A stretch of 64,000 bases of DNA from Chloroflexota bacterium (lineage in GTDB: Bacteria; Chloroflexota; Dehalococcoidia; UBA2247; JAUWOP01), in contig JAUWOP010000001.1 in assembly GCA_030612045.1 (NCBI GenBank), positions 26,767-90,766 on the forward strand, read 5' to 3'. This document shows positions 614 to 62,492 of this stretch, piece by piece. Positions within the stretch are counted from its first letter, which is position 1; the number at the start of each line of letters is the position of its first letter. The notes below the pieces were generated by a model. It ran no database searches. It was not told where the DNA came from and saw only the letters and a program-made list of their open reading frames with translations. The position numbers and the translations under genes are program-made.

Positions 614-1339
614 TTGGCATACATCATATCCCCAATGCATCTTGAAGATATACTCCAGGTCGTGGAGATTAGCCACGAGGCGTTCCCTTCAGAATGTCCG
701 CCGCTCTCCTTCAATTCCTTTAAGCGAGAGCTGGACAATGAGAGGGCTCACTACCTGGTAGCACGGGAGCAATCCGATTCTCCAATTTGTCAGAGCTACC
801 CCTTTCTTAACACTCACACTAGCACTGCGTCTGGAAGGAAGAGAACTATCTTACAACGACTGATTTCGAAGTTTAAGGCTTCCCCGGATAGATGGGATAT
901 TAACACAGGCGAAGAAGCTGCCTCGGACTCATGCTTGATTGTGGGATATAGTGGCTTATGGTTTATGGCAGACGAAGCTCACATCATGTCTATTGCTGTG
1001 CGTAGGTCTCACCAACACAGGGGGGTTGGGGAACCGCTTCTTACTGGTCTCATAGACCTGGCGATAGAATGTAATACAAGAGTCCTTACGCTGGAGGTAA
1101 GAGTTGACAATGTGTCTGCTCAGTCGTTGTATACGAAGTACGGTTTTCAAATAGTAGGTACACGCCCCAACTACTATACTGAGGACCACAAGGATGCCCT
1201 CATCATGTGCACTGGAGAGATTGCATCCGATTCTTTTCAGAAGCAGTTTCAGTGTCTAAAGCAGGACTATTCTAAGAAGCATAAGATTGTAAGTAAAGGA
1301 GAAGACTTATGGAGCAACTCTGGGCACCCTGGAGGATAG
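614..1339 (+). CDS. rimI: GNAT family N-acetyltransferase (RimI-like); the true start may be the internal Met near 635
   Basis: HEAF...HIMSIAVRRSHQHRGVGEPLL...LEVRVDNVSAQSLYTKYGF matches the acetyl-CoA binding Q/RxxGxG/A motif of the GNAT fold. Confidence 0.65.
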   Translation: MAYIISPMHLEDILQVVEISHEAFPSECPPLSFNSFKRELDNERAHYLVAREQSDSPICQSYPFLNTHTSTASGRKRTILQRLISKFKASPDRWDINTGEEAASDSCLIVGYSGLWFMADEAHIMSIAVRRSHQHRGVGEPLLTGLIDLAIECNTRVLTLEVRVDNVSAQSLYTKYGFQIVGTRPNYYTEDHKDALIMCTGEIASDSFQKQFQCLKQDYSKKHKIVSKGEDLWSNSGHPGG

Positions 1340-1785
1340 AATATATTCAGATGGAAAAGTCAGAGGGGTGTGTGATGTGCCAAAAGCCATTGGAGTCCCA
1401 GGATGAGGCAAACTATATTCTCTACAGAGGTGAGGAGAACTTTGTCATGCTCAACGCCTGGCCCTACAATCCTGGCCACCTGATGGTAATTCCTTACCGC
1501 CATATAGGAAATCTGGAAGAGCTATCTAATGCAGAGTTATGGGAACATGGGGATATAGTCAGAAAATGCCTTCATGCTCTGAAGACTGTGTTTAATCCTG
1601 GCGGTTTTAATCTGGGCATAAACTGCGGAAAGGTAGCGGGAGCGGGTATTGTGGGGCATATTCACACTCACATTGTACCTCGATGGGAGGGAGATACCAA
1701 CTTTATACCTGTCATCTCCAATACACGAGTGTTGCCAGAGGCATTATCTTCTACCTATCAGAAGTTGAAGGGGCAAATACGCTGA
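1309..1785 (+). CDS. HIT family hydrolase (histidine triad)
   Basis: HIHTHIVPR is the HxHxHxx triad. Cysteines near the N-terminus. Overlaps the rimI 3' end; the start could instead be at 1351. Confidence 0.7.
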   Translation: MEQLWAPWRIEYIQMEKSEGCVMCQKPLESQDEANYILYRGEENFVMLNAWPYNPGHLMVIPYRHIGNLEELSNAELWEHGDIVRKCLHALKTVFNPGGFNLGINCGKVAGAGIVGHIHTHIVPRWEGDTNFIPVISNTRVLPEALSSTYQKLKGQIR

Positions 1786-1786
1786 G

Positions 1787-1832
1787 CATTCAGTTTTCAG
1801 CTATTAGCCGCCAGATAGCTGTGCTGAAAGCG
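1787..1832. repeat. Family D short repeat (CAGCTATyAGC / GCTGAAAGC motifs), copy D1
   Basis: cattcagttttcagctattagcc...agctgtgctgaaagcgg. Related copies at 14524, 26374, 29728, 30329. Confidence 0.4.
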
Positions 1833-1877
1833 GTGGGCACTCACCTCCGAGGGCTATAGTATCTTCCCCCTTAAATT

Positions 1878-14578: not shown

Positions 14579-14896
14579 ATGGCAGAATTTGAATTTGATG
14601 AGTCAGAGCCTTGTTATGTCATAAGTATAGTAGCTAAGCGGGTTGGTATCCATATCCAAACCTTGCGGTATTATGAAAAGATGGGTGTTATTCAGCCAAC
14701 ACGCTCTGAGGGGAATATTCGCCTCTATTCAGAAAAGGACATCGAGAGGTTGCGGAAGGTCAAAATGCTAACAGATGACCTGGGAGTAAACCTCGCTGGA
14801 GTTGATGTCATCCTGCGCATGACAGAACATATGATAGAAATGGAAAGAGAGATGGAGCAGCTACGGGAGGAAATCAGAAAGCTAGATATGAGATAG
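14579..14896 (+). CDS. hspR: MerR-family heat-shock repressor HspR
   Basis: MerR HTH YVISIVAKRVGIHIQTLRYYEKMGVIQPTR, coiled-coil C-terminus, sits in a dnaJ-hspR-clp operon context. Confidence 0.75.
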   Translation: MAEFEFDESEPCYVISIVAKRVGIHIQTLRYYEKMGVIQPTRSEGNIRLYSEKDIERLRKVKMLTDDLGVNLAGVDVILRMTEHMIEMEREMEQLREEIRKLDMR

Positions 14897-18050: not shown

Positions 18051-19118
18051 GTGATTCAACGACACTATTCTCAGAGCATTCAAATAGGGAAGGTAACTAT
18101 TGGCGGTGACGCCCCTATCGTAGTACAGTCCATGACCAAGACTGATACCAGGGATGCTGCTGCCACTATCGAGCAAATTCGCCGACTGGAGGAGTGTGGC
18201 TGTGAACTCGTTCGGGTAGCAGTCCCCGACCTCAAGGCAGCTCAATCTATAGCCGAGATAAAGAAGGGTATCAACATCCCCCTGGTTGCCGATATCCACT
18301 TTGACTATCGGCTTGCGCTGGCATCTCTTGAGCATGGCGCCGATGCTCTGCGTCTTAACCCGGGAAACCTTCGTGACCCTGAGCACATTGCTGCTGTGGT
18401 TCAAGCTGCTAAAGAGAGGCAGACACCTATTCGTATCGGAGTGAATGCAGGGAGTATGCCACCAGATGAAGGCTGTCAGTCATCAGCTATCAGCTCTACG
18501 ACAGGCATCGTTAGCCGGATGGTTGAGGCTGCTATGGCACAGATACGTTTACTGGAGAGCCTGGACTTTAATCTCATCAAGGTATCCCTCAAGGCTTTCG
18601 ATGTGCCTACCACTGTTGAAGCCTACAGGGCTATTGCTTCTAGAATACCCTATCCACTACACCTGGGGATAACTGAGTCGGGTCTGACTCTACCAGGGTC
18701 TATCCGTAGCGCTATAGGACTGGGGATTCTACTCTCGGAGGGTATTGGGGACACCATCAGAGTCTCCTTGACTGACACCCCTGAGAAGGAAGTATTTGCT
18801 GCCTACGAGATATTAAAGTCTCTCAACCTGAGGGAACATGGGCCCACCCTCGTAAGTTGCCCTACCTGCGGCAGGTGTGAAATTGACCTGATAAGTCTGG
18901 CTAAGAAGGTGGGGGAGAGATTGCAAGGGGTAAGTAAACCCATCAAGGTAGCTGTGATGGGTTGCGTAGTAAATGGGCCTGGCGAAGCCAGGGAGGCTGA
19001 TGTAGGTATTGCTGGTGGAAAGGGCAAGGGGGCTCTATTTAGAAAAGGCAAGGTGGTGCGCACTCTACCAGAGGAAGAACTCCTGAGTGCCCTGATGTCG
19101 GAGATAGAAGACCTCTAA
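18051..19118 (+). CDS. ispG: 4-hydroxy-3-methylbut-2-en-1-yl diphosphate synthase (GcpE)
   Basis: IGKVTIGGDAPIVVQSMTKTDTRD..., C-terminal CPTCGRCEID Fe-S cysteines, GTG start with RBS gaggagaagag. Confidence 0.9.
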   Translation: MIQRHYSQSIQIGKVTIGGDAPIVVQSMTKTDTRDAAATIEQIRRLEECGCELVRVAVPDLKAAQSIAEIKKGINIPLVADIHFDYRLALASLEHGADALRLNPGNLRDPEHIAAVVQAAKERQTPIRIGVNAGSMPPDEGCQSSAISSTTGIVSRMVEAAMAQIRLLESLDFNLIKVSLKAFDVPTTVEAYRAIASRIPYPLHLGITESGLTLPGSIRSAIGLGILLSEGIGDTIRVSLTDTPEKEVFAAYEILKSLNLREHGPTLVSCPTCGRCEIDLISLAKKVGERLQGVSKPIKVAVMGCVVNGPGEAREADVGIAGGKGKGALFRKGKVVRTLPEEELLSALMSEIEDL

Positions 19119-23446: not shown

Positions 23447-25153
23447 ATGCCCATTCAAATTCTTACCACAGAGGTTGCATCTAGAATCGCTGCAGGAGAG
23501 GTCATAGAGAGACCAGCGTCTGTGGTGAAGGAATTAGTAGAGAATTCCCTGGATGCCACTTCTTCCAGTATCCACATGGAGGTACGGGGAGGAGGAGTAA
23601 ACCTCATTAAGATTTCTGATAATGGGATAGGAATCCCTTCCGAAGAAGCAGAGCTTGCTTTCCAGCACCATGCCACCAGTAAGCTCAATAGTCTTGATGG
23701 ACTAAGGAAGGTCTCTACCCTTGGTTTCCGAGGAGAGGCACTCCCAAGTATCGCTGCAGTAGCCGAGGTTGAACTCATTACCCGTTGCGCCACAGGGACT
23801 GCAGGAATATGCCTTAAGCTGGAAAAGGGAATCGTCACTGAAAAAGCCACTGTAGGATGCCCTCAGGGCACCACTGTGGCAGTACGAAACCTGTTCCGTT
23901 TCATTCCTGCCCGACTCAAATTCCTTAAGTCGACAACAACTGAAAACGCACATATAGCTGATGTTATCACCCATTATAGCCTAGCCTTTCCCAAGGTACA
24001 GTTTACACTGGCTACTGAGGGGCGTGAGATACTACACACCAGTGGTAACGGAAAGCTGGAAGATGTAATAGCTGAGGTCTATGGTACAGAGGTTGCCACA
24101 AAGATGCTGAGAGTAAACCCGCCAGAACAGGCAAATAATCCTCATGTTACTATCCAGGGTTATATTAGTCCCCCTCATCTTAGTCGTGCCAGTCGGAGAC
24201 ATCTTAGTTTCTTTATTAACCGACGCTGGATATATAGCTATCTGCTGAATAGGGCAGTGGAGAAGACCTATGAGGGGATGTTAATGAACGGGAGGTATCC
24301 TATGGTGATACTGAGCCTCTCTATGCCACCTGAGAATATTGATGTCAATGTGCATCCCTCTAAAAAAGAGGTCCGCTTCCTGCGGGAGCAGGAAGTCTTT
24401 TCTGTAATACATCAGGTAGTCCATGATACCCTGAGGGAGCAGACACCCCCACCGGAGATGAGACTGCATCCCTCTCCTTTTCATGCCCCGTGGCAACCCC
24501 AGGAAACAGTCAAGAGTCAGGAAGAGGTACTACTGAATACTGGCCCTCTGAATATCGACTCTCATACCTCACTGCCTTTTCTCCGTGTGCTGGGGCAAAT
24601 GGCAACTGTCTATATTATTGCTGAGGGTCCCGATGGATTATATCTGATTGACCAGCATGCCGCTCATGAAAGGGTGTTGTTTGAGAAAATCCTGGCTCAG
24701 CAACAGCATAGCATAGGTGGTACGAATGAGATAGAAGCTCAAGCACTGCTGCAACCCTTAACTCTTGAACTCGATATCCGACAGAAGGAGGTCATCCATT
24801 CCAAGGGTAAGTTGCTAGAGGAGTTTGGCTTTCTACTCGAGCCTTTTGGGAGAAACACCTACCTGGTGCGCAACATCCCTGCATCACTCAAGGAGGAGAA
24901 AGTAGATGTGGTAATAAAGGAAATTCTGGATTCACCTGACGAATCCATGACATCTCCCCAGTGGGTGAGGAAGTTAGCCACTTCTATAGCTTGTCACAGT
25001 GCTATCAGAGCAGGCCAAATCCTGAGTCCTGAGGAGATGCGAGAGTTGATATACCAACTGGAACAGACAGAATCCCCTCGCACCTGCCCCCACGGCAGGC
25101 CCACGATGATACACCTGAGTGTTGGGGAACTGGAAAAAGGGTTCAGGAGATAA
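23447..25153 (+). CDS. mutL: DNA mismatch repair protein MutL
   Basis: GHKL ATPase N-terminus IQILTTEVASRIAAGEVIERPASVVKELVENSLDA, C-terminal dimerisation domain. Confidence 0.9.
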   Translation: MPIQILTTEVASRIAAGEVIERPASVVKELVENSLDATSSSIHMEVRGGGVNLIKISDNGIGIPSEEAELAFQHHATSKLNSLDGLRKVSTLGFRGEALPSIAAVAEVELITRCATGTAGICLKLEKGIVTEKATVGCPQGTTVAVRNLFRFIPARLKFLKSTTTENAHIADVITHYSLAFPKVQFTLATEGREILHTSGNGKLEDVIAEVYGTEVATKMLRVNPPEQANNPHVTIQGYISPPHLSRASRRHLSFFINRRWIYSYLLNRAVEKTYEGMLMNGRYPMVILSLSMPPENIDVNVHPSKKEVRFLREQEVFSVIHQVVHDTLREQTPPPEMRLHPSPFHAPWQPQETVKSQEEVLLNTGPLNIDSHTSLPFLRVLGQMATVYIIAEGPDGLYLIDQHAAHERVLFEKILAQQQHSIGGTNEIEAQALLQPLTLELDIRQKEVIHSKGKLLEEFGFLLEPFGRNTYLVRNIPASLKEEKVDVVIKEILDSPDESMTSPQWVRKLATSIACHSAIRAGQILSPEEMRELIYQLEQTESPRTCPHGRPTMIHLSVGELEKGFRR

Positions 25154-25475
25154 ATATACTGAGCATATTCCAGGGAGCTCGTCTCAAATTCCCCTAGTGT
25201 AGTGTCTCCTAAATGACTTGACAATAGACGCCCCATGTCTCATTCCTGCCCCGTATCAAGTACGGGGTAAACTCCAGCAGGAATCCAGAAGGTCCAAGGA
25301 TGGATTCCGTGTCAAGTATGGAATGACAAACTGTATAGTTATTACGACTACACTACACTAGCTATATATGGCAACGCAAATATTTGCGCATAGGATATAT
25401 GAGGAATTTCTAAACTCTAAACAAACACTCATGGGTAGCTGCCCACCATCGAACTATGAAAATAACCCACTCTTT

Positions 25476-25588
25476 CTGTCATTACGAGCCCTTCCCCTAT
25501 GTCATTGCGAGCGAAGCGAAGACGCAAAGCTAATCTCATTGTCACCCCACCGAGATTGCTTCGGCACTGCGTGCCTCGCAATGACACA
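25476..25588. repeat. Family A nested-palindrome MITE-like element, copy A1
   Basis: tgtcattgcgagcgaagcgaag...ctaatctc / gagattgcttcgg...cctcgcaatgaca inverted arms around a caccccacc loop. Confidence 0.7.
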
Positions 25589-25744
25589 TTATGGGGACGC
25601 TCCTCGCCATGAAAATAGGCTGCGGCCCATACCGTTCGTGGTGAGCTTGCCGAACCATGAACACCCTTCGACAGGTTCAGGGCGAACGGGCAAGAGTCTA
25701 TTTTCGTAATAAACTCAAATGACCCAAATCACAATCTCAAAACT

Positions 25745-25874
25745 AGCCATAACTGCGCTTACGCTCCTCAGAATCTCGAAGACCCTGAGCAACCGATTAA
25801 GGTTCGTCGCTTCGCTCAGAATGACAAAAAGCGAAGGGCTCAGGGTGACATATAAAGAGTAGGTGAACGGTTAC
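25745..25874. repeat. Degenerate family A-related segment ending in the GGTGAACGGTTAC terminus
   Basis: cgcttcgctcagaatgacaaaaagcgaagggctcagggtgaca...aggtgaacggttac. Confidence 0.4.
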
Positions 25875-25882
25875 AAATAAAC

Positions 25883-27112
25883 CTAGAATTTGGGGTTTGA
25901 TGAGGACTGATGCCTCATTTCTCTGAAGAGTTGCCACGAGAGTGGTATCAATTTCACCATTTCTCTGGCTCCGAGATGCCTTAACCCACTACGTAATAGA
26001 TTACCATGCCAGTCGAAGGAGAATTCTGATGATTCCAATAAGGTAATATGGAGATTCCTCGATTTTACCAGTTGAAACATCTGCTCTATTTGTTCGTCAT
26101 CAAGATATTCAAATAAACGGCGTGCCCTATATCCTGTCCTTAGCTCTCTTCCTAGCTTCTTACGCCATCTCCTCTCGTATGGCAGGAGGGCGTGGGCAGT
26201 AAAGTCACCTTCAAGGAAAGCCTCATGAAGGGTATCAACTGCATCCTGTGCACAGAGGAGACCATAGTATATTCCCCCACCGGTAGTAGGCTTTACCTGC
26301 CCGGCAGAGTCGCCTACCACGATAAACCTCTCTCCATAGGTCTGTGGCAAGGGCAGGAGAGGAATGCCCCCATAGCTGATAGCTGATGGCTGATAGCTGT
26401 CAGCTATCAGTGGGATTATCTTACCCTGTGCTGAGAGGGTATCTATAAGTTGTCTCAAATAGGCACCAGGCTTACGCCGAGAAATCACACCTGCTAATGC
26501 CCTCCCATGTATTGTGGGGATGAGCCAGGCAAAGAAACCTGGGGCAATATCGTTACCCAAGTATATCTCTGTTTCCTCAATAGTAGAGTATCCTGATAAC
26601 TCAACCTCCAGTTGAGCCCCGGCTATGAAGTCCTGTATCTTTCCTAGCCCTAGCCTCTGGGGGAGGGAGGAACCAAAACCGGTGGCGATGACCACTACCT
26701 TGCTCTCTATCACTCCCTCTCCCGCTACAATTCGAACTGAATCCCTGCCTCGTTTAATATCTCTTACATGGCTACCCCATACATAGAGCGCCCCGGCTCT
26801 CATGGCTCTCTCCGCCAGTAGAGAATCAAGTTTCTCTCTACATACTATGTAAGCCTGTATCTCTTCCTTCCATATCTTGATGACCTCTCCTGAAGGGGAG
26901 AAGAAGCTGGCAGAGCTTGCCGGTCGAAAGACTATATTACCATCCAGGGAGAATCTTTCCATGCACTCTCTGCTAATAATGCCACTGCAACATATTGCTT
27001 CTCCAGCTCGAGCATGTTCCTCAAAGACAATAACATCATATCCCAGGGAAGCCATACCCTGAGCCACATAACTCCCCACTGGGCCCGCTCCTACTATAGC
27101 TACATCATACAA
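25883..27112 (-). CDS. Geranylgeranyl reductase family FAD-dependent oxidoreductase
   Basis: MYDVAIVGAGPVGSYVAQGMASLGYDVIVFEE Rossmann FAD motif with a GGR-like body. Contains the in-frame D repeat encoding LIADSYQPSAISY. Confidence 0.75.
   Translation of the reverse strand: MYDVAIVGAGPVGSYVAQGMASLGYDVIVFEEHARAGEAICCSGIISRECMERFSLDGNIVFRPASSASFFSPSGEVIKIWKEEIQAYIVCREKLDSLLAERAMRAGALYVWGSHVRDIKRGRDSVRIVAGEGVIESKVVVIATGFGSSLPQRLGLGKIQDFIAGAQLEVELSGYSTIEETEIYLGNDIAPGFFAWLIPTIHGRALAGVISRRKPGAYLRQLIDTLSAQGKIIPLIADSYQPSAISYGGIPLLPLPQTYGERFIVVGDSAGQVKPTTGGGIYYGLLCAQDAVDTLHEAFLEGDFTAHALLPYERRWRKKLGRELRTGYRARRLFEYLDDEQIEQMFQLVKSRNLHITLLESSEFSFDWHGNLLRSGLRHLGAREMVKLIPLSWQLFREMRHQSSSNPKF
26374..26410. 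repeat. Family D repeat with a perfect 10-1-10 palindrome, copy D3, lying in frame inside the geranylgeranyl reductase CDS
   Basis: agctgatagctgatggctgatagctg-t-cagctatcag. The 36-nt block is read through as about 12 codons. Confidence 0.6.
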
Positions 27113-27140
27113 CTGAGTTCACCAGCCTAAATGTAATGAC

Positions 27141-28235
27141 TCAAATATACTCCACCCGGCACCCTCTTCTTCTCATTACCCCCAGTGTTATAGAAAGTGC
27201 TTCGGCATCATGGTCACAGGAAGATAGCACTATCATTGCCGAAGGTAGAGGGTGCATCCCGGAGACCTTTTGCAATGCCTGTGCTGCAGGGTGATTCTCT
27301 GCTCCTCCACAAATAGCTCTATATTCTAATTCCAGGAGTGCTGCTAGTTTCTTCGCTGCCTCAGTCTCAGCTTCCTTCAGTCGATTCAGGGTTTGCCTCA
27401 ATATTTGGATGTTAGGTGGTTGGAGGAACCTAACCCCAAGTTCAACTATTATTATCTGTGGTATCAGTTGCAGCGCTTTCTCAAGTGCTGCTGTAGGGGG
27501 CATGGTAGGGGTTACTTCTATAACCTCCTGATGGTTATATGCTGCCAGTATCACAGGAATGGAATTTCTCGCCAGAGTCATCACAGTGGAGACAAGATTG
27601 AGCGCCAGTTTATCAGCCGCCTCAGCATCACTTACCGCCAGGTTGACCACCACTACAACAGAGCCTCGCGGTGCCTCCAGATATTCCTTCACCACCAGAC
27701 TCCTGAGTTTTGCCGTATGCTTCCAATCTATGTTTATCAAACTATCGCCAGGTTGAAAGAGACGGCTGCTATAGTACTCATCTTTGGCACCATACCTGAG
27801 TTTGGTAGATATTATAGTGGCAGTTCCACCTCCTCTTCCTGCTTCTCCTGCCAGGTATCTTCTTGCCAGCCACTCAGCATATCTAGCTCGGGGAATCACT
27901 ATCATCTCTGCCAGTTCCAGCCTCTGATTTGTCTGAATTAACCCCCATGGGTCAAGGATAGATGCCTGGAGTAATAACTGGGAGGGACCCGCCAGGGGTG
28001 GGGTGAGGAACGCCTCTATACTTACCTCATCTTTAATCTCACACTCGGTGGGTGAGGTGAGCCTAACCCATGGATAGGGGGAACTTAGTTTGGCACGCAG
28101 TGGCATACCATGATGGTTCCAAGCCTTTCCGGAAAGTGATTTTGTCTCACCAGCTACTACCTTGATTTCAGTCTGAGTACTCTCTAAAGGTGTAGTGGAA
28201 AGGTGATGCATGGTGCGGTAGGTGAGCGCCAGCAA
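27141..28235 (-). CDS. DUF58 domain protein (MoxR-partner, vWA-like)
   Basis: FQPGDSLINIDWKHTAKLRSLVVKEY is the DUF58 signature region. Confidence 0.65.
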   Translation of the reverse strand: MLALTYRTMHHLSTTPLESTQTEIKVVAGETKSLSGKAWNHHGMPLRAKLSSPYPWVRLTSPTECEIKDEVSIEAFLTPPLAGPSQLLLQASILDPWGLIQTNQRLELAEMIVIPRARYAEWLARRYLAGEAGRGGGTATIISTKLRYGAKDEYYSSRLFQPGDSLINIDWKHTAKLRSLVVKEYLEAPRGSVVVVVNLAVSDAEAADKLALNLVSTVMTLARNSIPVILAAYNHQEVIEVTPTMPPTAALEKALQLIPQIIIVELGVRFLQPPNIQILRQTLNRLKEAETEAAKKLAALLELEYRAICGGAENHPAAQALQKVSGMHPLPSAMIVLSSCDHDAEALSITLGVMRRRGCRVEYI

Positions 28236-28692
28236 GTAGGCTGCCAGTAAGGCTCATAGTATAGTCACCTAGCAAGAGGGCAATAACCAGCACCACACTC
28301 AGAAACAGCGCCATTGCCTTGAATACAGGGGTAGGTTTTCTGCCCTCCACAGTGGTAGGTTGACCGACATCGGTCAACCCTACCCAAAGGGGGATAAAGG
28401 GCTCTCCTTGAGCATTCCTCCTCAGCTCCCAGTCCAGCAGAGGAATAGCAGGTATTACTATAAAGGCAGACGCTATGCTAAAAGGTTGAGGTATTATTGC
28501 TTTGAAGGTCAGTGGCAATAATGCCAGGCTCAGCAAAATCAGGGGTAGCCCTACTCTGGGACTGACTGTCTTCCACAGAAAGTATGCCTGTAACAAGAAT
28601 AGTGCTATTGCTACCGCAGAGTAGGGCATTGGTGAGAGCACCATCACCACTACTGTGGCAAGCATGATGTATATGCGAGAGAAAAGGTTCAT
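28168..28692 (-). CDS. Hypothetical integral membrane protein (about 4 TM) between moxR and the DUF58 gene; contains an in-frame family C palindrome
   Basis: Strongly hydrophobic helices. Palindrome C2 encodes the loop GLTDVGQPTTVEG. Confidence 0.45.
   Translation of the reverse strand: MNLFSRIYIMLATVVVMVLSPMPYSAVAIALFLLQAYFLWKTVSPRVGLPLILLSLALLPLTFKAIIPQPFSIASAFIVIPAIPLLDWELRRNAQGEPFIPLWVGLTDVGQPTTVEGRKPTPVFKAMALFLSVVLVIALLLGDYTMSLTGSLLAGAHLPHHASPFHYTFREYSD
28355..28386. repeat. Family C palindrome, copy C2 (centre CA, one extra C), in frame inside the membrane-protein ORF
   Basis: ggtaggttgaccga-ca-tcggtcaaccctaccc. Confidence 0.65.
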
Positions 28693-28737
28693 AATCCCCC
28701 TAACCCCCTTTAGAAGAGGGGGAAAGAGGGGGATTAT
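28693..28737. repeat. Family B hairpin element, copy B1 (moxR / membrane-protein spacer)
   Basis: aatccccctaaccccctttagaagagggggaaagagggggatt, a nested inverted repeat. Confidence 0.6.
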
Positions 28738-28758
28738 TCTTCTTTAATGATTTGGACA

Positions 28759-29709
28759 TTACACTCCCCTGGGCACAGGGACCCTCTCTATAGCTCTCTC
28801 AATAATGTCTCGTGGAGTTATCTCTCCCACAATATCTGTCTCCTGATTCAGGTGAATGCGGTGCTCCACTACCGGGCGGATAAGCCGCTTCACATCATCT
28901 GGTATCACGAAATCCCGTTCTTGTAAGAAGGCTAGCGCCCGTGCCCCCTTATATAGAGAGATGCTGGCTCTAGGTCCAGCACCACTGGAGACATCCTCAT
29001 CTCCCCGAACATGATTTACTATTCTAACAATATAATTCTCTATCTCAGGGGAAACAAACACCTTGGTGACAGCCTTTCTAAATTCTATCACCTCAGCAGG
29101 GCTTATCACTGGCTCTATCTGGAGGATGTCAAGGCTGTCAATCCTGCGAAGTATCTCGACTTCCTCTGCCCCCGGAGGATAGTTGCTCTCTGCATAGAGC
29201 ATGAAACGGTCAGCTTGAACCTCAGTAAATGGGTAGGTTCCTTCAGCTCCATATTTGAGCTGGGTGGCAATAACCAGGAATGGTTGTGGGAGGGTGTGGG
29301 TCACCCCTTCTACTGTTACCTGCCCCTCCTGCATTGCCTCCAGTAGAGCTGATTGAGTTCGCGGGGTAGTAAGATTTAGCTCATCAGCTAACACCACATT
29401 AGCAAAAATGGGTCCTGGGATGAACCGTGACTTACCATTGAGGTCGTAAATATTGAACCCTGTGATGTCACTGGGGAGTATGTCAGGGGTGAATTGAATG
29501 CGTTTGAATTCACCACCCAGGGCGAGGGCGAAGCTCTTAGCAATAGTAGTCTTGGCAGTGCCGTTGGCACCCTCAATGAGGATATGTCCCCCGCTGAGGA
29601 TTGCCACCCCCAGTAGCTCCTTCAGCTCTGCCAGCCCCACCACTACACGGGAGACCTCATCCACTATCTTCCCAAATGCTTCAAGTGATACCTTAGGTGT
29701 TTCAATCAT
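28759..29709 (-). CDS. MoxR-family AAA+ ATPase
   Basis: HILIEGANGTAKTT Walker A, DELNLTTPRTQSALLEAMQE Walker B / sensor, length 316 aa. Confidence 0.85.
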   Translation of the reverse strand: MIETPKVSLEAFGKIVDEVSRVVVGLAELKELLGVAILSGGHILIEGANGTAKTTIAKSFALALGGEFKRIQFTPDILPSDITGFNIYDLNGKSRFIPGPIFANVVLADELNLTTPRTQSALLEAMQEGQVTVEGVTHTLPQPFLVIATQLKYGAEGTYPFTEVQADRFMLYAESNYPPGAEEVEILRRIDSLDILQIEPVISPAEVIEFRKAVTKVFVSPEIENYIVRIVNHVRGDEDVSSGAGPRASISLYKGARALAFLQERDFVIPDDVKRLIRPVVEHRIHLNQETDIVGEITPRDIIERAIERVPVPRGV

Positions 29710-29727
29710 AGTTCACTCCTTCTGGTA

Positions 29728-29769
29728 GTTGTCAGCATTCAGTTATCAGCCATCAGCATCCAGCTTTTG
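29728..29769. repeat. Family D repeat, copy D4 (immediately upstream of the moxR start)
   Basis: gttgtcagcattcagttatcagccatcagcatccagc. Confidence 0.4.
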
Positions 29770-29807
29770 TATAAGTCCTGTAAACATGCGTTTCACTTCC
29801 TGTAAGC

Positions 29808-29917
29808 GTTCACCCCCTTTCATGTCGTTGCGAGGAGCGTGGCGACGAAGCAATCTCTTCCACCCCACCGAGATTGCTTCGCCTTCGGCTCGCAATGACA
29901 CAGGTGAACGGTTACCA
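29808..29917. repeat. Family A element, copy A2, with GTTCACC...GGTGAAC termini
   Basis: gttcaccccctttcatgtcgttgcgag...ctcgcaatgacacaggtgaacggttacc. Confidence 0.7.
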
Positions 29918-30023
29918 CTTCTTTTACTTGACCATCCAATGCCTCATGGGTTTTTATATCCAGGTATCCCAACTCTTGAGACAGAAGTAGATGATATTCG
30001 TAAGTGTTCACCTGCTCCCTATC

Positions 30024-30106
30024 AAATCCCCCTTAGTCCCCCTTTTCTAAAGGGGGAAAAGAATGTAAGCCTCCCCCTTTTCTAAAGGGGGACTAAGGGG
30101 GATTTT
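30024..30106. repeat. Family B composite element, copy B2 (two CCCCCTTTTCTAAAGGGGG hairpins inside an outer inverted repeat)
   Basis: aatcccccttagt-cccccttttctaaaggggg-...-cccccttttctaaaggggg-actaagggggatt. Identical over more than 80 bp to the reverse complement of copy B5 at 52330. Confidence 0.7.
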
Positions 30107-30206
30107 TCTTCTCGGGGAAAGGATAGCGTAGCCTTATATACAGACAGTACCATTCCGTGAGCCTTCTGCCATACTTCCAAGCTTCTAAAATCTCTCATTT
30201 TCAGTT

Positions 30207-30327
30207 GCCGTTCACCCATGTCATTGCGAGCGAAGCGAAGCAATCTCACCCCCCCCACCACCGAGATTAGCTTGCGTCTTCGTCGCTACACTTCTCGCAA
30301 TGACATGAGAGTGGGTGAACACTTACC
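30207..30327. repeat. Family A element, copy A3, flanked by a 13-bp direct repeat attttcagttgcc
   Basis: gttcacccatgtcattgcgagcgaagcgaagcaatctc-acccccccaccacc-gagattagcttgcg...tctcgcaatgacatgagagtgggtgaacacttacc. The direct repeat sits at 30198-30210 and 30328-30340. Confidence 0.65.
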
Positions 30328-30328
30328 A

Positions 30329-30423
30329 TTTTCAGTTGCCAGCTATCTTTTTAGCTTTCAGTTATCAGCTTTCAGCCTCCACGCCCCTGCTGATGGCTGA
30401 ATGCTGATAGCTGACAGCTAAAT
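30329..30423. repeat. Family D repeat cluster, copy D5, running up to the stop of the DUF4350 gene
   Basis: ttcagttgccagctatctttttagctttcagttatcagctttcagcc...gctgatggctgaatgctgatagctgacagct. Confidence 0.45.
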
Positions 30424-31322
30424 TAATGTTTCCATACTCGCCTCCAGGTCAGTGCTAACACCACTACGATTATACCCAGAACAACCAGCGGTGCGTCAAG
30501 AACACCGCGAGTCTCCTCCAGTCCCTCCTTGGCTACAGTCAATGCCCCTTCAGGAAGATGCGACTGGTCGAGCAGAACCTGACTATCCGAGCCGGTGGCA
30601 TTCCTGAGGAACACAGCGTTGTCCTCCATACCTTCCATACTGTTAATCAGGATGCTGGGGTCAGCTACCAGAATAACCCTTCCTGAGCCGTATGCAGTGG
30701 TGGCAATTACCGGGAGGGGACCCTTAGGCTCATCTTCGTCCCAATTTAGGTTGCCATTCTCATCCACGAAGCTGAAGTGGGAGGATTGAGCGATGACTTC
30801 AGCCTCAGAAACGTCCTTCAAAGCAGTAGCGTGGTCGAATACAATGGCTTCCACACCTGTGACCAGAGGGGAGGGGGAGAAGTCCGTTATTTGGGGAAAC
30901 TGCTCATTCTTGTAATTGAACAGGGGGTCCAGGAGGGGTGTGCCATAGAACCTTACACTCAACCCCATGTGCTCCAGCACCTCATTTCCGCAGCCATAGT
31001 CATCCATAAGCAGCAGGGTTCCCCCACCAGAAACATATAATTTTACCTGCTCTAGTTCAGCAGTAGAGAATTTAGTATAGGGTATCAGCACCAGGGTGGT
31101 GCCTGAAGGGTCAGCAGGGAGGTCTGCCAGGGAGTTCACCCCGGTGGCGGTAAACTGAGCAGTGAAATCCGTCGCACCGTTCCAGGAGGGATTGTCCTCT
31201 CTGAAATCGTCTATTACCGGATAGAGCCAGACGAGCACACCCAGCGCTATCACCGTTACTACCCCGGAAATCCACAATACCCTACGCCAGTTTACCCTTT
31301 TGTAAAGCTCATCATTACCCAC
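30423..31322 (-). CDS. DUF4350-like protein with N- and C-terminal TM helices
   Basis: TM VLWISGVVTVIALGVLVWL at the N-terminus, a large soluble domain, and TM PLVVLGIIVVVLALTW at the C-terminus. This layout is typical of DUF4350 proteins found with MoxR and DUF58. Confidence 0.5.
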   Translation of the reverse strand: MGNDELYKRVNWRRVLWISGVVTVIALGVLVWLYPVIDDFREDNPSWNGATDFTAQFTATGVNSLADLPADPSGTTLVLIPYTKFSTAELEQVKLYVSGGGTLLLMDDYGCGNEVLEHMGLSVRFYGTPLLDPLFNYKNEQFPQITDFSPSPLVTGVEAIVFDHATALKDVSEAEVIAQSSHFSFVDENGNLNWDEDEPKGPLPVIATTAYGSGRVILVADPSILINSMEGMEDNAVFLRNATGSDSQVLLDQSHLPEGALTVAKEGLEETRGVLDAPLVVLGIIVVVLALTWRRVWKH

Positions 31323-31334
31323 AAATAAAACTCC

Positions 31335-31428
31335 TCTTCCCTAAGGGGGGGGGAATGGAAGTCCCCCTTCCCTAAAGGAAGATCCCATCAGTCCCCCTTT
31401 TCTAAAGGGGGATTTAGGGGGATTACAA
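31335..31428. repeat. Family B element, copy B3 (contains a G9 tract)
   Basis: ccctaagggggggggaatggaagtcccccttccctaaagg...gtcccccttttctaaagggggatttagggggatt. Confidence 0.55.
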
Positions 31429-31716
31429 ATTCTCATACACTCTTTCGACAGCTCCACTAAGGTTCTCAAACACCTCTCTATCTGAAAACCGCAAGACTTT
31501 CAATCCATGCTCCTTCATATAATCATCCCTAATCTTATCCTTCTTAACCCCCTCATCATTGTAGTGCTGGCTACCATCAATTTCAATAATTAGCTTTGCT
31601 TTTGGACAGTAGAAATCGACTATATAGTTACCTATAATCCTCTGCCTATAAAATTGATACCCTTTCAACTGCTTTCTCCTCACCTTAGACCAAAACAGCC
31701 TTTCTGCATCAGTCAT
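31423..31716 (-). CDS. DUF559 / Vsr-like PD-(D/E)xK endonuclease-domain protein (97 aa)
   Basis: ...YQFYRQRIIGNYIVDFYCPKAKLIIEIDGSQH...LRF matches the D...EIDG DUF559 core. Confidence 0.6.
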   Translation of the reverse strand: MTDAERLFWSKVRRKQLKGYQFYRQRIIGNYIVDFYCPKAKLIIEIDGSQHYNDEGVKKDKIRDDYMKEHGLKVLRFSDREVFENLSGAVERVYENL

Positions 31717-36312: not shown

Positions 36313-37311
36313 ATGGTACAGATAGCTAAGAGTAAACAAAAGATGCTTCATCACACGAATGGTACCTTATTGCCCGAAGAGAGCAAGGAGGAACTACACC
36401 TTCAGGAGATAACCTGGGAGGGGTTAACATGGCTTAATGTTGAGAAGCCTACCCCAAGGGAAATTGAGTATCTATCCCAACACTACCCCTTTCACCATTT
36501 AGACCTGGATGACTGCCTGAGCCGAATCCAGCTTCCCAAAATAGATGTTTATGATGAGTACCTTTTCATTGTGCTGCACTTCCCCCTGTTTAGCAAAGAG
36601 GCACAGGTTACTATACCCAGTCAGGTTTCGATTTTTATCGGCAGGGATTATTTAGTTACTCTCCATGCAGGAACACTTAAACCCCTGACTAAGCTCTTCC
36701 GAGACTGCCAACTTCGTGAAGAGGCACGGCAGGAGAATATGCGATGCTCTGGCTATCTTCTGTATCGCATTGTTGACAGGTTGATTGATTATTGTTTACC
36801 CATATTGAACAAGATAATAGAGAATATGGATAAGGTGGAAGATGATATTTTTGATGCCAAGAAACGGGAAACAGTAAAGGAGCTTTCTGCCCTGCGCCGC
36901 GATATCATCTCTTACCGTCGCATCATCTCACCATTACGAACTGTAGTTGCTACCCTGGAATACCATACATCTCGCTTCCAGAGAGAGGATATGGAGGTCT
37001 ATTGGGGAGACGCTACAGACCATATTGATAAAATGCGGGATACTCTGGATGAGTGCAAGGAGATTATTGAAGGGTTGAACGACACCAATAACTCCCTCTA
37101 CTCCCATCACACCAATGAGGTAATGCGTATACTCACCATCCTGGCAACTGTAATAATGCCTCTTACTCTGGTTGCCAGTCTCTATGGAATGAATGTGCAT
37201 CTGCCAGGCGACTATGGAGAAGGTTACGCTACATTCATCATCATATTGGTAGTTATGAGTCTCATTACCGGAGGCATGCTGTTCTTCTTTTATCGTCGTG
37301 GCTGGATATGA
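36313..37311 (+). CDS. corA: Magnesium/cobalt transporter CorA
   Basis: C-terminal TM pair with YGMNVHLPG, the GMN signature. Confidence 0.85.
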   Translation: MVQIAKSKQKMLHHTNGTLLPEESKEELHLQEITWEGLTWLNVEKPTPREIEYLSQHYPFHHLDLDDCLSRIQLPKIDVYDEYLFIVLHFPLFSKEAQVTIPSQVSIFIGRDYLVTLHAGTLKPLTKLFRDCQLREEARQENMRCSGYLLYRIVDRLIDYCLPILNKIIENMDKVEDDIFDAKKRETVKELSALRRDIISYRRIISPLRTVVATLEYHTSRFQREDMEVYWGDATDHIDKMRDTLDECKEIIEGLNDTNNSLYSHHTNEVMRILTILATVIMPLTLVASLYGMNVHLPGDYGEGYATFIIILVVMSLITGGMLFFFYRRGWI

Positions 37312-37316
37312 ACAGA

Positions 37317-37375
37317 AGGCTGAAGGCTGAAGGGGTCTAGTAGCCTTCAGCCTAACTACCAGAGTGGGTGAACGG
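37317..37375 (+). repeat. GGCTGAAGG hairpin element plus a solo family-A terminus, in the 72-nt gap upstream of the YhhQ gene. It is a likely terminator for corA; alternatively a candidate preQ1-type aptamer (weak)
   Basis: gaaggctgaaggctgaagg-ggtctagtag-ccttcagcc followed by gagtgggtgaacggttatc. A related hairpin lies at 58121. Confidence 0.35.
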
Positions 37376-52223: not shown

Positions 52224-52497
52224 GTAACCGTTCACCCTGTGTCATTGCGAGCATCCGACCCGCCGCTGCGCTGGGCGGGTTATATCAGAAAGGAACTCTG
52301 AGTTCCTTAGGAGGAGTGTAGCGATGAGTAATCCCCCTTAGTCCCCCTTTAGAAAAGGGGGAGGCTTACATTCTTTTCCCCCTTTAGAAAAGGGGGACTA
52401 AGGGGGATTTGATGGAGGATGAGATTAGCCTTGCGTCTTCGCTCCGCTCGCAATGACGGGTGGAATTTCATCACCCGCAACCTAATCTAACATTGTC
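52224..52497. repeat. Family A long-form element, copy A6, with a complete family B composite (copy B5, 52330-52410) nested inside
   Basis: gtaaccgttcaccctgtgtcattgcgagc + cccgccgctgcgctgggcggg module + [B5] + gagattagccttgcgtcttcgctccgctcgcaatgac + gggtggaatttcatcacccgcaacctaatctaacattg. Confidence 0.7.
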
Positions 52498-62063: not shown

Positions 62064-62492
62064 ATGTTACCTTATGAGAAAGCACTTCAGGAATATCTGA
62101 GGGATGAGCTTAGGGTAGTAAATGCTCATCTTCCCAGCCACCAAAAATCGTTATCAGCCTTGCTCCAGGAGGATTATCCTCATGTAAGATGCCAGGATGG
62201 TAATGTTTACCTCTTCAAGAAGAAGGAGTTGGAATATCTTGCCAGCCTGGTAGATGCCGCAGAGCAGGAAGCACTATCACTTCCTATACTTATAGAATCG
62301 GGTTCAAATCAAGGTGAAGTAGCAATAATATGCAGGGGAGAGGTGGAGGAGAAGGTTATTTCCCATATTCTTGATATGCCTGTTACGAGCCAAAAAGGAA
62401 AAATTGTGATATATAGACCACAGCTAGCCTTACTAAGGAAGACATTAAAAACCACAACCCAGTATGTGTTTTCCCCCGCAATCCTCAAATAA
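62064..62492 (+). CDS. DUF61/UPF0216-like protein (family otherwise typical of archaea)
   Basis: ...ELRVVNAHLPSHQKSLSALLQEDYPHV...LPILIE...IVIYRPQLALLRKTLKTTTQYVF resembles UPF0216 motifs. Confidence 0.45.
   Translation: MLPYEKALQEYLRDELRVVNAHLPSHQKSLSALLQEDYPHVRCQDGNVYLFKKKELEYLASLVDAAEQEALSLPILIESGSNQGEVAIICRGEVEEKVISHILDMPVTSQKGKIVIYRPQLALLRKTLKTTTQYVFSPAILK

Follow-up and report, generated by a model that had tools for sequence, protein, structure and literature searches.

The stretch analysed here (the window) comprises 64,000 nucleotides (nt) of contig JAUWOP010000001.1, from the Chloroflexota metagenome-assembled genome (MAG) GCA_030612045.1. On its minus strand it carries the gene of a flavoprotein of the geranylgeranyl reductase family, inside which lies a short block of repeated DNA whose nature and origin are the subject of this work. 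The features at this locus are:

25883..27112, minus strand: geranylgeranyl-reductase-family flavin adenine dinucleotide (FAD) flavoprotein, 409 residues, TTG start (TIGR02032, alignment, AlphaFold/Foldseek)
26374..26410, minus strand: heptamer block in the reductase gene (sequence, translation, Tandem Repeats Finder, period-7 scan)
26390..26410, no strand assigned: exact 10-1-10 palindrome (pattern search, folding)

Read on the plus strand, the 37-nt block is AGCTGATA GCTGATG GCTGATA GCTG-T-CAGCTATCAG (i.e.: GCTGATA GCTGATG GCTGATA GCTG-T-CAGCTATCAG), or, in an alternative notation, AGCTGATAGCTGATGGCTGATAGCTG-T-CAGCTATCAG. These letters are exactly those quoted in the original prediction, and the perfect 10-1-10 palindrome that it announced, CTGATAGCTG-T-CAGCTATCAG, is present at 26390-26410, where a pattern search sets the chance expectation at 0.01 matches. 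Tandem Repeats Finder described positions 26372-26399 as 4.0 copies of a period of 7 with 90% matches, the top-scoring heptamer array of the window, and a stringent period-7 self-match scan of all 64 kb returned the 26374-26410 locus as its sole hit. Along the entire block an AGCT core (AGCC once) recurs every 7 nt, and the 3-base spacer alone changes, from GAY to ATC. Because the AGCT core of the unit is self-complementary, the array can switch orientation in phase; the palindrome is the site of this switch and exists because of it. The block is a heptanucleotide tandem repeat, rather than a palindromic element of defined length. In the mRNA, a hairpin of 11 base pairs is predicted at the palindrome (-26.6 kcal/mol, z = -3.7).

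The block lies in frame inside the minus-strand coding sequence. Its coding strand, CTG ATA GCT GAC AGC TAT CAG CCA TCA GCT ATC AGC TAT, gives residues L235-Y247 (LIADSYQPSAISY), and the translation of the open reading frame (ORF) across it (...GKIIPLIADSYQPSAISYGGIPLLPLP...) is free of stops, in agreement with the claim that the frame of 25883..27112 is unbroken.

The host gene looks functional, judging from its family-model coverage, its conserved residues and its predicted fold. The protein is full length, scores 187.7 bits against TIGR02032 (cut-off 158.8) over profile positions 1-296 of 297, matches several Rossmann Pfam families for FAD and nicotinamide adenine dinucleotide (NAD), and retains every residue that is invariant in the family alignment. 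Its AlphaFold model has a mean predicted local distance difference test score (pLDDT) of 80, and the top Foldseek match is PDB 3OZ2, a reductase from Thermoplasma, with a template modelling (TM) score of 0.78. Over residues 231-250 the pLDDT drops to 70 and 60, compared to 90 immediately before, as would be expected of an added flexible loop segment. The scores against the equivalog models for ChlP, archaeal lipid reductases and MenJ are far under their cut-offs, and we have therefore left the specific substrate unassigned. The best-named homologues of this protein, and those of IspG (see below), come from Dehalococcoidia and other Chloroflexota MAGs. Regarding the start codon, the database call of the reductase (P0001, 398 residues) begins at an internal ATG (window 27080-27112), removing the GxGxxG dinucleotide-binding motif, while the TTG at 27112 yields MYDVAIVGAGPVGS and agrees with the N-termini of homologues.

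The original prediction left open whether the block was an in-frame repeat insertion or a coding region from which the repeat family had been seeded. We aligned the reductase with 24 homologues (25 sequences in all) around GKIIPL...GGIPLLPLP. The loop between GKI and YGGIP has 14 residues in the reductase vs 8 in the other sequences, and the extra residues are present in none of the 24. Among the 120 best matches, all 85 homologues that could be well anchored have a loop of exactly 8 residues, the length of 14 being found in this protein only; PDB 3OZ2 also lacks the extra residues. The condition that the original prediction named as refuting, the same residues in homologues from unrelated taxa, was thus not seen among these homologues, and the first of the two alternatives, an insertion, is supported. 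The 12 residues attributed to the block are indeed encoded in frame, but they are not all new: though the block encodes 12-13 residues, the net gain compared to homologues is of six residues (18 nt). The block ends, at the C-terminal side, in I-S-Y (ATC AGC TAT), which coincides with residues common among homologues (ISYGG), and part of the block appears from this alignment to replace or coincide with older loop sequence.

That overlap is the only point in favour of the second alternative, namely that nothing was inserted, the residues are ancestral and the reductase coding region is the source of the repeat family. We find this highly improbable, given the short loop of all 85 anchored homologues and the distribution of identical arrays in other genomes. 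A genome scan for (GCTGATR)3GCTG returned at least 120 loci (L007-L126) in many bacterial phyla; the matches listed include Acidobacteriota, Gemmatimonadota, Planctomycetota, Bacteroidota, Cyanobacteriota (Moorena, Okeania, Microcoleus), Chloroflexota, Patescibacteria, Vibrio and others, with arrays of up to 31 units. The phenomenon is therefore general and the reductase gene is not the source of the family, whose members in the window are, besides, mostly intergenic. In other phyla too, arrays lie in frame inside real enzymes and other proteins: a WecG glycosyltransferase (L008), AnmK (L074), a CoxM-CoxS linker (L114) and a DUF2142 membrane protein (L073). Of the 34 open frames that run through arrays in other genomes, many are spurious high-GC ORFs or natural sorting-domain sequence of the type IX secretion system (T9SS; L081), and we did not count these as insertions. 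Several matches per genome were seen, among the matches listed, in Blastocatellia PMV_6.28, Cyanobacteriota MAG08, Chitinophagales bin.151, Gemmatimonadaceae SMAG_U1704 and Moorena.

Short tandem repeats are prone to misassembly, and the block could in principle be an assembly or sequencing artefact in a low-complexity stretch. We give this next to no credence: the frame is intact and 7 contigs encode an identical reductase protein. They come from 6 samples, namely three ENA assemblies and three Logan assemblies, which derive from different runs. At the DNA level these contigs are 99.7-100% identical to the window, i.e. nearly clonal, and differ by three single-nucleotide polymorphisms and one 11-nt indel, none of them in any heptamer array. 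The block allele is fixed in every assembly of the population. No copy-number variation was seen at 26374-26410, 18474-18494 or 29727-29764 among the 6 assemblies, which, being nearly clonal, provide a weak test.

The 11-nt indel lies in a DUF58 gene just upstream of the reductase gene. There, an 11-nt tandem repeat (28245-28255, minus strand) varies in copy number among assemblies of the same population: L002-L005 have two copies, AGCCTTACTGT AGCCTTACTGG, and one intact DUF58 ORF of 520 residues, while the window, L001 and L006 have one copy, and the gene is split into ORFs of 174 and 364 residues (28168..28692 and 27141..28235). This variation is a slippage-type frameshift polymorphism.

The original prediction had called the block a possible second case of an in-frame insertion and had proposed a screen for other coding sequences with copies of the repeat; screening the window revealed one such copy, in ispG:

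18051..19118, plus strand: ispG, 4-hydroxy-3-methylbut-2-enyl diphosphate (HMBPP) synthase, host of the second copy (homologue loop lengths)
18474..18494, plus strand: second in-frame copy, TGT CAG TCA TCA GCT ATC AGC = CQSSAIS (sequence, alignment, loop counts)

This copy consists of exactly 3 heptamers (21 nt, 7 residues), reading GCTGATA GCTGATG ACTGACA on the minus strand, the first 14 nt of which are identical to the start of the reductase block. The corresponding loop, delimited by regular expressions as the residues between NAGS[LM] and the MVEAA motif, measures 13 residues in 79 of 99 Chloroflexota homologues and 12 in 7 of them; here it measures 20, and goes back to 13 upon removal of CQSSAIS. 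The same loop has been altered in other lineages. In the Chloroflexi MAG GCA_016190665.1 (P0199; L127 3438-3571), ispG contains about 19 gradually drifting heptamers (GAAGCGG... GCCGGGG... ATCGGTA... ATCAAAA) and a loop of 51 residues where 13 is usual, and this is an independent insertion of a heptamer array at the same permissive site in another lineage. In the ispG of a JGI metagenome contig (P0133; L129 918-950) there is a 33-nt near-perfect palindrome, AGTGGGCGTCAGGTCC-C-GGACCTGACACCCACT, with a loop of 20 residues, so that yet another lineage, the third, has a small insertion of hairpin type here. The long ispG loops of P0138 and P0124 showed no period-7 or repeat signal; hence, not all long ispG loops are repeat-derived.

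Both coding copies belong to a family dispersed in the window, to which our census was confined. Its unit, RCTGAWD, is mostly TAGCTGA, and arrays are made of mixed units: GCTGATA, GCTGATG, GCTGAAA, ACTGAAT, GCTGACA, etc. We found 9 arrays of at least 3 units, compared to 0-2 in 20 dinucleotide-preserving shuffles, and 16 occurrences of GCTGATAGCTG with at most 1 mismatch, compared to 1.7 expected. Seven of the nine arrays are intergenic in a window of which about 83% is ORF; the binomial P of 0.001 for this bias counts three arrays as lying inside ORFs, although one of these ORFs, 29729..30085, consists of repeats and has not been called as a gene. The intergenic members are:

1781..1835, no strand assigned: inverted heptamer arrays that immediately follow the ORF 1309..1785 stop codon
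14523..14558, plus strand: 5-unit array of ACTGAAA type, upstream of ORF 14579..14896 and about 20-30 nt from its ATG
29727..29764, minus strand: 5-unit array, one unit being a true TAACTGA, which ends upstream of the MoxR-like gene 28759..29709, about 20 nt from its ATG
30349..30423, no strand assigned: inverted pair of heptamer arrays, TTTCAGC-type units, a 12-nt spacer, then GCTGATG GCTGAAT GCTGATA GCTGACA GCTAAAT
37312..37353, plus strand: GCTGAAG units and an inverted partner, immediately following the ORF 36313..37311 stop codon
62499..62519, minus strand: weak array of 3 units, after ORF 62064..62492

The intergenic copies that the original prediction placed at 1787, 14524, 29728 and 30329 are thus real, but they are degenerate heptamer arrays rather than copies of a fixed 36-nt element. 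Exact TAACTGA units occur in two intergenic arrays (29740-29750 and 30359-30369). Inverted arrays fold into hairpins at four sites, the reductase block included; the other three are 30350-30421 (a long hairpin; -43.3 kcal/mol, z = -8.3), 1786-1831 (-23.3 kcal/mol, z = -2.1) and 37317-37353 (-23 kcal/mol, z = -3.9). Reading these hairpins as intrinsic terminators is unsupported: they have no T-tails, and a consensus terminator scan of 25000-31500 gave no site at any heptamer array. Against Rfam 15, only two tRNAs of the window reached the gathering score and no heptamer array was matched. The probable role of the intergenic members is that of hairpins, in RNA or in DNA, or of sites close to gene ends to which proteins bind; this role would not extend to the coding copy.

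Copies within the window resemble each other in the order of their units. Both coding copies share the 14-mer GCTGATAGCTGATG, followed by RCTGWCA, and three intergenic arrays likewise end in GCTGACA. The copy closest to the reductase block is the right arm of the intergenic inverted pair (30389-30421), with 28 of 33 positions matching. By contrast, among the matches listed from other genomes, just one of 129 arrays of the same unit has the GCTGNCAGC junction directly after its last unit, and none of the 129 has a downstream inverted array, which argues that the copies in the window share a genome-specific ancestry instead of having arisen independently. The shared unit order would then mark the common descent of copies within this genome, and not a generic property of the repeat.

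The orientation of the coding copies is not neutral with respect to translation. As GCTGATAGCTGATAG shows, each of the three frames meets a TGA or TAG within 21 nt when the repeat is read in the GCTGATA direction; in the CAGCTAT direction it is translated without stops into one heptapeptide, L-S-A-I-S-Y-Q, whichever frame is used. Relative to their gene, the two coding copies are reversed, and so read in the stop-free direction, as ...SYQPSAISY and ...QSSAIS, with SAIS in both. In the reductase, the short inverted arm (CTGATAGCTGAC) is open in a single frame of the three, and that frame is the one the gene uses. Both genes changed in length by a multiple of three, 18 nt in the reductase and 21 nt in ispG. 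This pattern is the expectation if copies land or grow randomly and selection spares only the harmless ones, and makes these genes a clean and quantifiable example of filtering by selection: stop-free orientation, single open frame and lengths divisible by three.

Taking these data together, we think it likely that the block is a member of the genome-wide heptamer family that was copied into a permissive loop of the reductase and is carried there as a passenger. It could have arrived by copying from another member, whether through insertion, gene conversion or template switching, with slippage acting then or at the same time, and would have survived only because, by chance, the permissive loop was compatible with its orientation, its frame and the change in length, a multiple of three. 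The coding copies would be neutral or nearly neutral passengers at the protein level, with no function of their own.

Several observations weigh against this interpretation. No insertion-free allele or close relative was found in the databases searched (5.8 billion clusters): the next protein is at most 55% identical, no reductase protein lies between 55% and 100% identity, and the 90% cluster has a single member, so that no sister sequence shows where exactly the insertion ends or by which mechanism it arose. Since 18 nt, the net gain, cannot be divided by 7, one has to suppose two or more steps, or else that the old loop was replaced in part; +21 and -3 nt would give this length, as would an 11-nt inverted duplication plus one 7-nt unit. 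Part of the block, the I-S-Y codons, may be ancestral sequence that acted as a seed, and the coding copy may have a function at the protein or RNA level. No target-site duplication and no flanking direct repeat is visible around the reductase or the ispG copy. Finally, no associated enzyme was identified, the proteins of the window not having been screened for a RAYT (IS200-like Y1) transposase, the enzyme associated with REP/REPIN elements.

The main rival to copying is a local origin from a ATCAGCTAT-type or ATC AGC TAT seed: the block would have grown in place from the ancestral ATC AGC TAT by replication slippage and a strand switch (quasi-palindrome), without any transfer of DNA. Homologues commonly have ISYGG, which makes an earlier proto-unit plausible, and the I-S-Y codons happen to equal one heptamer unit. 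Slippage does operate in this population, as seen in the 11-nt repeat of the DUF58 gene, present in one or two copies. Moreover, among the long simple repeats of bacteria, heptamers are described as the most abundant class, and this has been attributed to polymerase slippage, according to Mrazek (2007) as cited in PMC4679880. Slippage of a 7-nt unit does not, however, account for a gain of 18 nt, and it would homogenise the array; instead, the units are heterogeneous (ATA/ATG/ATA/TCA) and their order matches that of the ispG and intergenic copies. In addition, there are nine sites of the same motif family in 64 kb, and no comparable seed exists in the ispG loops of homologues. We hence consider a local origin unlikely.

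We also weighed whether the block is a functional element, be it a contingency (phase-variation) switch that works by frameshifts of ±7 nt, a modulator of translation in the form of an mRNA hairpin, or a new protein loop that is of use. It is the most regular heptamer array of the window, a stable mRNA hairpin is possible, both coding copies sit in enzymes of the isoprenoid pathway, and the adjacent DUF58 gene, on the same strand, shows an on/off frame polymorphism at its 11-nt repeat. Yet not a single copy-number variant of the block or of the ispG copy was found on the 7 contigs, four units are short for efficient slippage, and an off switch is implausible in ispG, which is normally essential. 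The peptide is simply the fixed translation of the repeat, and two genes are too few to speak of a pathway bias. A functional role for the block is therefore, in our judgement, very improbable.

Going beyond a passenger copied once into each gene, the heptamer modules of this lineage might be elements of very small size that are actively copied, have the internal order GCTGATA-GCTGATG-(GCTGATA)-GCTGWCA in common, insert into new sites, coding sequence among them, and repeatedly remodel permissive enzyme loops. This we regard as a speculative and rather unlikely proposal; in its favour, the ispG loop holds repeat-derived insertions in three lineages (here, in GCA_016190665.1 and in the JGI contig). 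If true, it would represent a repeat-driven route to the evolution of protein loops, analogous to the Rickettsia palindromic elements (RPE) at a tenth the size and without a known enzyme.

The RPE of Ogata and colleagues (2000) are reportedly about 100-150 bp long, with a family-wide consensus, and add 30-50 residues to their host proteins. Like them, the reductase block is repeated, hairpin-capable DNA lying in frame within a conserved gene, adding a peptide while leaving the host protein intact; unlike them, it has 37 nt made of 7-nt units and adds six residues. Compared to a MITE (miniature inverted-repeat transposable element), of about 100 bp or more, the block is short and its ends are not set by a family consensus; it does share with elements of MITE or RPE type the preservation of the frame of a conserved gene and the addition of a peptide absent from homologues, as seen in the alignments and loop counts. 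Closer in size are the small dispersed repeats (SDR) that Elhai and colleagues are said to have described in 2008 (Genome Res 18:1484, cited in PMC3116915) in Nostoc punctiforme, of 21-27 nt. SDR are likewise repeats in the range of 20-40 nt, for which no enzyme is known and which seem to be copied to other places, some of them within tandem heptamer repeats and genes. They differ in having a fixed, non-tandem consensus, while the module here is itself a heptamer array, with a mobility that would follow from the shared unit order of few copies. The heptamers of cyanobacteria known as short tandemly repeated repetitive (STRR) sequences, reportedly described by Mazel in 1990, are similar too. 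Like STRR and other long simple sequence repeats, those of the window are heptanucleotide tandems, dispersed in the genome, with a species-specific unit and a presumed link to slippage. By their description, STRR have other unit sequences and are mainly intergenic genotyping markers, and the palindromic arrangement and shared unit order seen here are absent from that description. The heptamer composition is not known to resemble any described repetitive extragenic palindromic (REP) sequence.

A further parallel is provided by the TAACTGA direct repeats that MacGregor described in Beggiatoaceae, cyanobacteria and Bacteroidetes (2015, Front Microbiol 6:1397, PMC4679880). These are mainly intergenic, frequently just upstream of start codons; in the forward direction all their frames are closed (LITDN-), the reverse encodes LSVISYQ, and reverse repeats are found in eleven ORFs, mostly at protein ends or in hypothetical proteins (PMC4679880). 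Neither a mechanism of spread nor a binding protein was identified for them (PMC4679880), and in a Nostoc preprint regulatory roles of heptamer repeats are only speculated upon. Our family resembles them in several respects: a 7-base unit repeated in tandem, with 2-6 copies per array; arrays that are scattered and lie mainly between genes, some of them closely upstream of a start codon or overlapping a stop codon; a closed forward and a translatable reverse direction (LSVISYQ there, LSAISYQ here), with a minority inside ORFs, reversed. There are differences too. The dominant unit here is TAGCTGA, one base off, and units are mixed within an array; inverted array pairs that form hairpins are common here, while there is one indirect repeat among 170 sets there; the host here is a Chloroflexota MAG; and the coding copies lie in the middle of conserved enzymes, not at protein ends or in hypothetical proteins. 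Our literature search found no paper on heptanucleotide repeats in Chloroflexi, and the present case extends the heptamer arrays of cyanobacteria, Beggiatoaceae and Bacteroidetes to this phylum, with a variant unit and a hairpin arrangement.

The block belongs, in sum, to a known class of bacterial heptamer repeats and reveals neither a new mechanism nor a new function. It does illustrate that short repeats can sit inside conserved enzyme genes of uncultured bacteria and leave these genes intact; such segments should not be taken for errors by gene callers or by quality filters that rely on alignments.

The intergenic regions of the window look like nests of several small repeat families. A second dispersed family, AGTGGGTGAACNNTTAC, has 8 copies (25858, 29802, 30000, 30310, 37363, 49668, 52224 and 62550) compared to 0.08 expected. 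Four of them are at most about 60 nt away from a heptamer array, with inconsistent order and orientation, and we consequently rejected the idea of a fixed composite of heptamer arrays and the AGTGGGTGAAC..TTAC family: they are separate but co-located. Two ORFs on the plus strand, 25368-25709 and 29729-30085 (113 and 118 codons), are situated in repeat-rich intergenic DNA; no gene is called at the latter in the population loci covering it, and the former contains peptide strings of the CHCERSE...LAMT type, which we take to be typical of translated repeats. Yet another repeat family is represented by an exact 59-nt repeat, AAGGGGGAGGCTTACATTCTTTTCCCCCTTTAGAAAAGGGGGACTAAGGGGGATTTGAT, with GGGGGA/TCCCCC motifs, found at 30021-30079 (reverse complement) and 52355-52413.

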